A stretch of 64,000 nucleotides of DNA. Origin: Escherichia coli. GTDB taxonomy: Bacteria; Pseudomonadota; Gammaproteobacteria; Enterobacterales; Enterobacteriaceae. The translations under genes were made by a program, and so were the position numbers. Shown piece after piece: positions 1,978 through 62,397 of this stretch (position 1 is its first letter; every line of letters starts with the position of its first letter). The stretch lies in the NCBI RefSeq assembly GCF_003334305.1, contig NZ_QOWS01000013.1. One strand, given 5' to 3'. A model generated the notes under the pieces. The model did no database searches. It was not told the DNA's origin and saw only the letters and a program-made list of their open reading frames with translations.

Positions 1978-2159
1978 TATTCACTCTGACTTAAAAGTGA
2001 TTTAGATCACATAATATAGATAACAGCATAACAGTTACGCTAATATATTAAATATCAATCTACAGCAATGTTGCTCTCGCCCGGCTTTCCATGCCCTTCT
2101 CTGCGGCGACAGATGCTGAAAATAATAACGCCTGCTCTCTCTTTACAACCAAGGTCAAC

Positions 2160-61854: not shown

Positions 61855-61941
61855 GCCGAGGTGGTGGAATTGGTAGACACGCTACCTTGAGGTGGTAGTG
61901 CCCAATAGGGCTTACGGGTTCAAGTCCCGTCCTCGGTACCA
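61855..61941 (+). tRNA. leuU: tRNA-Leu (anticodon GAG), leuU
   Basis: 87-nt sequence GCCGAGGTGGTGGAATTGGTAGACACGCTACCTTGAGGTGGTAGTGCCCAATAGGGCTTACGGGTTCAAGTCCCGTCCTCGGTACCA: acceptor stem pairs with the 3' end, long variable arm typical of tRNA-Leu, encoded CCA; directly downstream of secG as in the reference. Confidence 0.9.
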
Positions 61942-61954
61942 AATTCCAGAAAAG

Positions 61955-61980
61955 AGACGCTGAAAAGCGTCTTTTTTCGT
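61955..61980 (+). terminator. Rho-independent terminator after leuU
   Basis: AGACGCT-gaaa-AGCGTCT followed by TTTTTTCGTTTT. Confidence 0.8.
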
Positions 61981-62397
61981 TTTGGTCCTGGTCTGAGGAA
62001 TGGTTGTCAGGTATCTGTATCTCGTCCAGTTGCTTTACTCGTAGCTGGTACCTTGAAACGATGGTGCCGGTACGCCTTAGTTATAAACTTTTCCCTTCTG
62101 CTGACATAATTGGCACTTTATTGTGTCAACTCCAGTTCCGGTACGAATACGGATATGTTTACTTCTCGATAAACCATCCTGCTCCTGTCAGTATAACTAC
62201 TGATGGCTACGTTCTGCGTAATGTTTAGAGACGCATTGATAATGTTATTTAATTACTGAGAACAATGGCCGCATCATTTAAAAAGAAAAAACTAACAGTG
62301 TTTCGGTCTGATATGGATCAGAGTTGAAAAACATGTCTGATATAAAATTGAACATTGTTGATAATTGTTTATATTGGTTGTGAACTTGGATTTCTGG

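Follow-up and report, generated by a model that had tools for sequence, protein, structure and literature searches.

The 456-bp spacer between the tRNA gene leuU and yhbX, in the window analyzed here (a stretch of 64,000 nucleotides of Escherichia coli DNA), is probably the conserved terminator of secG-leuU followed by the H-NS-silenced upstream region of an acquired yhbX gene, and on this explanation it is an ordinary feature. The spacer occupies 61942-62397, exactly as a preliminary description of the sequence had it, with leuU ending at 61941 and the ATG of yhbX beginning at 62398. The AT-richness remarked on in that description is real: the spacer has a GC content of 0.386, as compared with 0.514 over the window as a whole, and only 2.2% of the 456-nt segments within the 64 kb are equally AT-rich. 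The spacer is made of two parts, 61942-61983 (42 bp, the terminator) and 61984-62397 (414 bp, cassette DNA). The suggestion that the stretch was probably just the yhbX promoter region can be kept for the promoter-proximal part, but not for the first 42 bp, which are the leuU terminator, nor for the 414 bp as a whole, which together with yhbX form a low-GC, H-NS-bound acquired cassette. All the components of the spacer are of known kinds, and the key functional data on them have already been published. The features referred to below are as follows.

61855-61941, plus strand: leuU, tRNA-Leu(GAG), the last gene of the secG-leuU operon (ARAGORN; Rfam tRNA, 52.8 bits).
61949-61983, plus strand: Rho-independent terminator of secG-leuU (terminator scan; hairpin at 61952-61976 and U-tract).
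61984-62280, no strand: distal spacer, GC 0.424, the left end of the cassette; E. coli-specific, no recognisable element.
62004-62228, plus strand: 74-codon open reading frame with a TTG start, most likely not a gene (ORF list).
62051-62080, plus strand: sigma-32-like motif, CTTGAAA, 14 nt, CGCCTTAGT, a weak candidate read from the sequence.
About 62262-62275, minus strand: antisense transcript end, Rho termination region (U00096.3 position 3321743, plus strand, which is about 62268).
62278-62439, minus strand: 53-codon antisense open reading frame over the yhbX start, not conserved (ORF list).
62281-62397, plus strand: yhbX promoter-proximal region, GC 0.299, which aligns with the upstream region of allele c.
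62307-62322, no strand: palindrome TCTGATATGGATCAGA of the CRP/FNR-family type, core TGAT-N4-ATCA, centre 62314.5 (pattern searches).
62337-62365 and 62348-62375, plus strand: sigma-70-like matches (promoter scan).
62343-62348, plus strand: predicted -10 hexamer TAAAAT (sequence and conservation in allele c).
62398-64000, plus strand, running off the window end: yhbX, phosphoethanolamine-transferase family, GC 0.431 (annotation of identical RefSeq loci).

Judged from its sequence, the leuU terminator is ancestral and common to the Enterobacteriaceae. A GC-rich hairpin of 13 pairs stands directly before a U-tract, the sequence following the hairpin being TTTTTTCGTTTT, and its predicted fold of -19.5 kcal/mol is well beyond that of shuffled sequence (z = -5.05). 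Across 29 Enterobacterales sequences, compensatory double changes were found at 5 of 10 pairs, with 2 broken cells, as expected of a Rho-independent terminator. All 5426 complete E. coli genomes have kept the element, a distinction that no other part of the spacer shares, and it is likewise the only part that aligns with other genera, with an identity over about 35 nt of 97% in Salmonella (35 nt), 91% in Raoultella and 89% in Citrobacter. It resembles the Rho-independent terminators of other tRNA operons, with the hairpin and U-tract 7-10 nt past the CCA end and with covariation, and there is nothing unusual about it. In K-12, Term-seq places the mature 3' end of leuU at U00096.3 position 3322072, the sole sense-strand 3' end in the spacer. 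The segment 61942-61983 serves to end the highly expressed secG-leuU transcript. When the region was searched with the Rfam 15 covariance models, tRNA alone passed; all other matches had E values of at least 0.5 and scored far below the gathering scores.

Beyond the terminator, the leuU-argG slot of E. coli holds one of three cassettes. The one in the window, allele a, consists of 61984-62397 and yhbX, about 2 kb of low-GC DNA bounded on one side by the leuU terminator and on the other by the stop codon of argG, a convergent gene. Allele a is found in the slot in 5179 of the 5426 complete E. coli genomes, with a spacer 95-100% identical, and is in one piece in 5168 of them. Allele b (237 of 5426) carries an unrelated gene on the opposite strand, encoding a helix-turn-helix (HTH) protein of 317 residues in which an N-terminal XRE-type HTH is the sole recognisable domain. 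Allele c (9 of 5426) encodes a divergent phosphoethanolamine transferase of 531 residues, with about 70% DNA identity to yhbX, behind an upstream region of 231 bp. The three alleles are homologous up to 61983/61984 and again from the argG stop codon onward, and all three cassettes have a GC content of 0.37-0.42 between flanks of 0.52-0.53. Allele b is represented by locus L001 (6043-7210) and allele c by L002 (6043-7912), both intervals corresponding in position to the window from 61984 onward. Allele c was also met in 406 blocks of a wider collection index, and the 24 contigs examined all had it in the leuU-argG context.

An identical spacer in all close relatives, one of two findings that for the preliminary description would together dispel its suspicion of an island, was not what we found: the spacer differs, and the yhbX cassette is missing from 247 of the 5426 E. 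coli genomes and from all 120 loci of other Enterobacterales. The comparison shows that the slot holds a replaceable cassette, exchanged without a tRNA att site. Alternative cassettes with both flanks in common are as expected for allelic replacement by homologous recombination; the three would be swapped through recombination in the conserved flanks and not by a tRNA-targeting integrase. Horizontal acquisition of the cassette in the Escherichia lineage, as one of three alternatives at the slot, is part of the explanation that we consider probable as a whole. The sample comprised the 5426 complete E. coli genomes and the 120 other Enterobacterales loci. Apart from E. coli chromosomal DNA, no copies of the spacer were found in plasmids or phages. 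At the other end of the slot, the argG terminator hairpin (CCCTG..CAGGG) lies within the last codons of yhbX in allele a (L003, 5050-5100, past the window end) and in the intergenic gap in allele c, while allele b retains an argG terminator of the Salmonella type, AAAAAAAGGCCGC...GCGGCCTTT.

The other Enterobacterales were surveyed by searching species-representative genomes with the 34-mer at the leuU 3' end, which gave the 120 loci (L007-L126). Wherever that flank was present, secG was linked to leuU, and in none of the 120 did a YhbX homolog follow leuU. Three arrangements were seen instead. In Salmonella, Citrobacter amalonaticus, Kosakonia and Enterobacter, 150-350 bp with REP-like sequence and the argG terminator lead to convergent argG; in Atlantibacter, Dryocola, Siccibacter, Pantoea, Erwinia, Photorhabdus and others, leuU runs straight into the metY promoter; and in Raoultella, Pluralibacter and Shimwellia, a lipoprotein-like gene sits in the slot. 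Across the Enterobacterales the first 46 nt past leuU are either the conserved terminator or directly the metY promoter, and argG itself therefore appears to occupy an insertion slot between leuU and metY.

YhbX, which begins at 62398-62400 and reads MTVFNKF..., has a phosphoethanolamine-transferase domain by NCBIfam (8.6e-46) and scores below the cut-offs for EptA, EptB and CptA. Its 50%-identity cluster consisted of Escherichia sequences alone among those examined, and the nearest relatives outside it are 41-48% identical. The upstream regions of four distant relatives (P0121, P0122, P0124 and P0125) have no similarity to the spacer. In some strains the gene is inactivated: codon 265 is a stop in L135, the frame of L156 shifts near codon 10, and L144 (strain Z1323CEC0017) carries IS26 copies both in the spacer, near window position 62306, and in yhbX. 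A GalR site given for yhbX (PMC5110547) was considered as a spacer element and set aside, as it falls within the coding region.

Like H-NS-silenced DNA in general, the cassette is AT-rich relative to the genome and restricted in its phylogenetic distribution. The occupancy and derepression values are those of Myers 2013 (PMC3688515; Tables S3, S7 and S11), taken as published, and the K-12 coordinates of the literature were converted to the window using metY and leuU as anchors. In the ChIP-chip data of that study, H-NS regions at 3318000-3320779 (aerobic) and 3318628-3320878 (anaerobic) extend over secG and leuU as well as over yhbX and the entire spacer. Only in cells deprived of hns and stpA does an FNR ChIP-chip peak at 'yhbX' become significant (0.42 to 0.70), and only there does yhbX have a +O2/-O2 ratio of 0.46, i.e. 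a 2.2-fold anaerobic induction. A sigma-70 ChIP-seq peak from anaerobic culture, for which anaerobic specificity was not claimed, lies at U00096.2 position 3319596, about 62437 in the window (PMC3688515); it could also belong to a promoter antisense to yhbX. With the whole cassette coated by H-NS in K-12, yhbX would be kept nearly silent. We also looked for the high-affinity H-NS motif TCGATAAATT and found a single 8/10 match in the spacer, at 62166, which is uninformative because there are 85 such matches across the window.

The core promoter of yhbX would occupy the last 100 bp or so of the spacer. Only over its last ~120 bp does the spacer align with the DNA upstream of the allele c gene, and the blocks best kept between alleles a and c are TGATAT(G/A)GATCAG and TATAAAAT, 22 nt apart in both. 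The first of these blocks belongs to the palindrome cTGATatggATCAg, which matches 8 of 10 positions of either the FNR (TTGAT-N4-ATCAA) or the CRP (TGTGA-N6-TCACA) consensus and has a C, where T or G would be diagnostic, at the position that discriminates FNR from CRP. If TAAAAT is taken as the -10 hexamer, transcription is predicted to start at about 62355/62356, and this predicted geometry puts the centre of the palindrome at about -41, the class II layout; such a CRP/FNR-type site together with the TAAAAT hexamer would give an activator-dependent promoter. The layout fits the FNR binding and the anaerobic induction of yhbX that are seen only without H-NS and StpA. According to Myers 2013, many of the FNR promoters unmasked by H-NS removal carry a site near -41.5 (PMC3688515). 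As in class II FNR/CRP promoters, a TGAT-N4-ATCA repeat stands 22 nt upstream of TAAAAT and takes the place of a -35 element, whereas the partial consensus match, the C at the discriminating position, the start being a predicted one and the mutation of the site in some E. coli lineages (C to T at 62319, giving ATTA for ATCA, which weakens it) set the yhbX promoter apart from them.

The cassette may also be compared with the H-NS-silenced xenogeneic genes that make up the Category 7 FNR targets of Myers 2013, such as hlyE and ttdR. It shares with them the low GC content, the narrow taxonomy, the extended H-NS region over gene and upstream DNA, and the FNR binding and anaerobic induction confined to cells without H-NS and StpA. 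It differs in that yhbX is not known to have a counter-silencer or to be induced under any natural condition, and in that its FNR-type site is off consensus and has a predicted position relative to the start. The palindrome is absent from the predicted FNR sites of the same study (Table S6, PMC3688515), and the supplements of the ROSE, SMRT-Cappable-seq and Cappable-seq studies have no entry for a transcription start in the region. The window shows no enrichment of its core, TGAT-N4-ATCA, which occurs 3 times where 1.14 occurrences are expected. While counting FNR-like sites we came across a near-consensus CRP-type palindrome, GTGATTTAGATCAC, at window positions 1997-2010.

The most serious alternative is that the 414 bp past the terminator are functionless filler, and that palindrome, FNR peak and anaerobic effect alike are non-specific consequences of H-NS removal. 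There is something to be said for it: the loss of hns and stpA brought out 196 new FNR peaks, of which many were at weak sites (PMC3688515), the palindrome is non-consensus and mutated in some lineages, and yhbX is a pseudogene in some assemblies or is cut by insertion sequences in some strains. The palindrome and TAAAAT blocks are, moreover, short enough that by our own estimate they may have survived by chance at the background identity of ~58% between alleles a and c. Against this, yhbX needs a promoter, its reading frame is kept intact with a clear third-position bias, the blocks and their spacing are common to allele c, and a sigma-70 peak sits at the yhbX start. Polymorphism in the spacer points the same way, with values per site of 0.067 (distal part) and 0.077 (proximal part) next to 0.146 at the third codon positions of yhbX, roughly half over the entire length, so that the distal part too may be under some constraint. 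We therefore regard filler as unlikely, and retain the H-NS-silenced upstream region as the reading of the 414 bp. Such a level of polymorphism is usual for E. coli intergenic DNA. Four indel polymorphisms occur in the spacer among E. coli lineages: 3 bp at 61952-61954 in the lower terminator stem, 6 bp at 62142-62147 between TACG repeats, a CG dinucleotide at 62262/62263, and one T in an A-run at 62291.

As for the distal spacer, it lies inside the published H-NS ChIP-chip regions (PMC3688515 coordinates) and probably acts only as an AT-rich platform for H-NS and as a buffer where antisense transcripts are terminated by Rho short of leuU. The buffer role is suggested by a Rho termination region listed in supplementary file 2 of Adams 2021 at U00096.3 position 3321743. 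Without BCM, 199 reads lay upstream of it and 22 downstream, as against 240 and 76 in the presence of BCM, and the Rho score was 2.86; the position, about 62268 in the window, implies that antisense transcription leaving yhbX ends inside the spacer. The spacer also tolerates disruption, by a cat insertion in K-12 and by IS26 in one strain; the cat cassette, at 62089|62090, has been used in K-12 as a neutral marker linked to ftsH.

A different role for this DNA would follow if yhbX were transcribed from the sigma-32-like motif at 62051-62080, which would make the spacer a leader of ~310 nt with regulatory RNA structure. The motif has a perfect -35 (CTTGAAA), an in vitro SELEX peak of the RpoH holoenzyme has been mapped to the yhbX<-leuU spacer at 3319952, which is about 62083 in the window if the coordinates are those of U00096.2, and the sense strand of the spacer folds slightly better than shuffled sequence (z = -2.26), while the minus strand does not. 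However, the peak was obtained only in vitro and its intensity of 3.2 is barely over the cut-off of 3.0, the -10 has 5 matches in 8 positions, and strains differ within the motif at 62051, 62052, 62073 and 62079. Nor does the putative leader match any Rfam family or contain 3' ends by Term-seq; allele c has no counterpart of the region, and the cat insertion just 3' of the motif has no reported phenotype. A long sigma-32 leader is accordingly very unlikely. More generally, a function of the distal 300 bp of their own (61984-62280), whether as a sigma-32 promoter with a long yhbX leader or as the source of a young 74-residue protein made by terminator read-through, strikes us as highly improbable; if true, it would explain why polymorphism is about half that of third codon positions in 95% of strains.

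The second of these options concerns the 74-codon frame, which the preliminary description had noted and which does exist as an open frame at 62004-62228. To call it Cys-rich was generous, as it has 3 Cys only, and it does not strictly lack a ribosome-binding site, because GAGGA stands at 61995-61999, 4-5 nt before the TTG. As a real small protein, translated from terminator read-through or from a promoter of its own, it could point to this GAGGA, to a frame that is open in 22 of 23 distinct alleles with a 6-bp deletion that stays in frame, and to codon position 2 holding only 1 of 17 variable sites. Yet the variable sites are distributed 9/1/7 over the codon positions in the 23 distinct alleles, with position 1 as variable as position 3, unlike the 22/16/78 of yhbX, and among the first 13 alleles there were 8 nonsynonymous and 6 synonymous changes. 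The product is an orphan, with no NCBIfam match and only E. coli self-matches among 5.8 billion proteins; the frame has neither the substitution pattern nor the homologs of a small-protein gene. Strain L148 has a nonsense codon at 62127, the neutral cat marker cuts the frame, and Term-seq gave no sense-strand 3' end or separate transcript for it. The frame is thus most likely not a gene and appears to evolve almost neutrally; the chance that it encodes a protein is very slight.

A few other candidates were discarded along the way. The 53-codon antisense frame, which ends just before the antisense 3' region, was rejected as a gene, with a 1-bp insertion that shifts the frame of its C-terminus in L004 and L006 (B2-type alleles) and no family match. 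P0157, from locus L145, was rejected as a divergent relative: it comes from a bisulfite-converted assembly and differs by C to T changes alone. L145 (Logan SRR3359616) is K-12-like DNA whose differences from the window are all C to T outside CpG, and this contig is probably the source of spurious 'divergent' proteins, certainly of P0157 and possibly of other fragments. P0273 matches the 74-codon frame and then diverges abruptly, and is probably a junction artefact.

This leaves the question of whether the DNA past leuU is a tRNA-associated island. The preliminary description raised that suspicion while seeing neither an integrase nor a direct repeat of the 3' end of the tRNA, and both absences were borne out here. 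No integrase lies between leuU and argG in alleles a, b or c, and the ORF list of the window shows nothing else; a 24-mer and a 16-mer of the leuU 3' end, allowing up to 3 mismatches, match leuU alone in the window and up to argG, so that the duplicated 3' end proposed as a mark of an att site was not found up to there. A local alignment of leuU with the spacer does no better than chance, its score being equalled or exceeded by 201 of 1000 shuffles, and the same result disposes of a tRNA-like remnant at 62045-62146 that by eye had resembled the leuU anticodon and T arms. Instead of breaking inside the tRNA, homology runs 42 bp past leuU, through the terminator, both among the alleles and among genera. 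With no integrase, no tRNA 3' repeat and a junction past the terminator, the cassette is not a classical tRNA island. It does resemble the tRNA-associated islands at pheV, selC and leuX in lying directly 3' of a tRNA gene, in its atypical composition (GC 0.37-0.42 against 0.52 in the flanks) and in its variable presence among strains; it differs from them in those three respects and in amounting to one gene in ~2 kb. The island suspicion thus fails as to mechanism, there being no tRNA att route, but holds insofar as the DNA is foreign and strain-variable. That the spacer is the scar of an integrase insertion into the leuU 3' end, with integrase and att repeats since decayed, would account for DNA that is low in GC, strain-variable and missing from other genera, but with the right boundary at the argG stop codon, the break in homology beyond the terminator, argG, metY or a lipoprotein-like gene in the outgroup loci examined, and neither integrase nor repeat in evidence, this is already close to refuted.

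The finding carries little weight for biology in general. On the reading that we favor, a conserved terminator and the H-NS-silenced control region of an acquired envelope-modification gene account for the AT-rich gap. The suspected island site is cleared, in that E. coli does not use leuU as an integration target. The distal spacer, already used in practice for engineered insertions, is confirmed as a safe site for them. The analysis also provides a promoter model open to testing for YhbX, an uncharacterised phosphoethanolamine transferase, with a predicted FNR/CRP-type site near -41, and it makes of the leuU-argG slot a three-allele replacement locus that is usable as a lineage marker.
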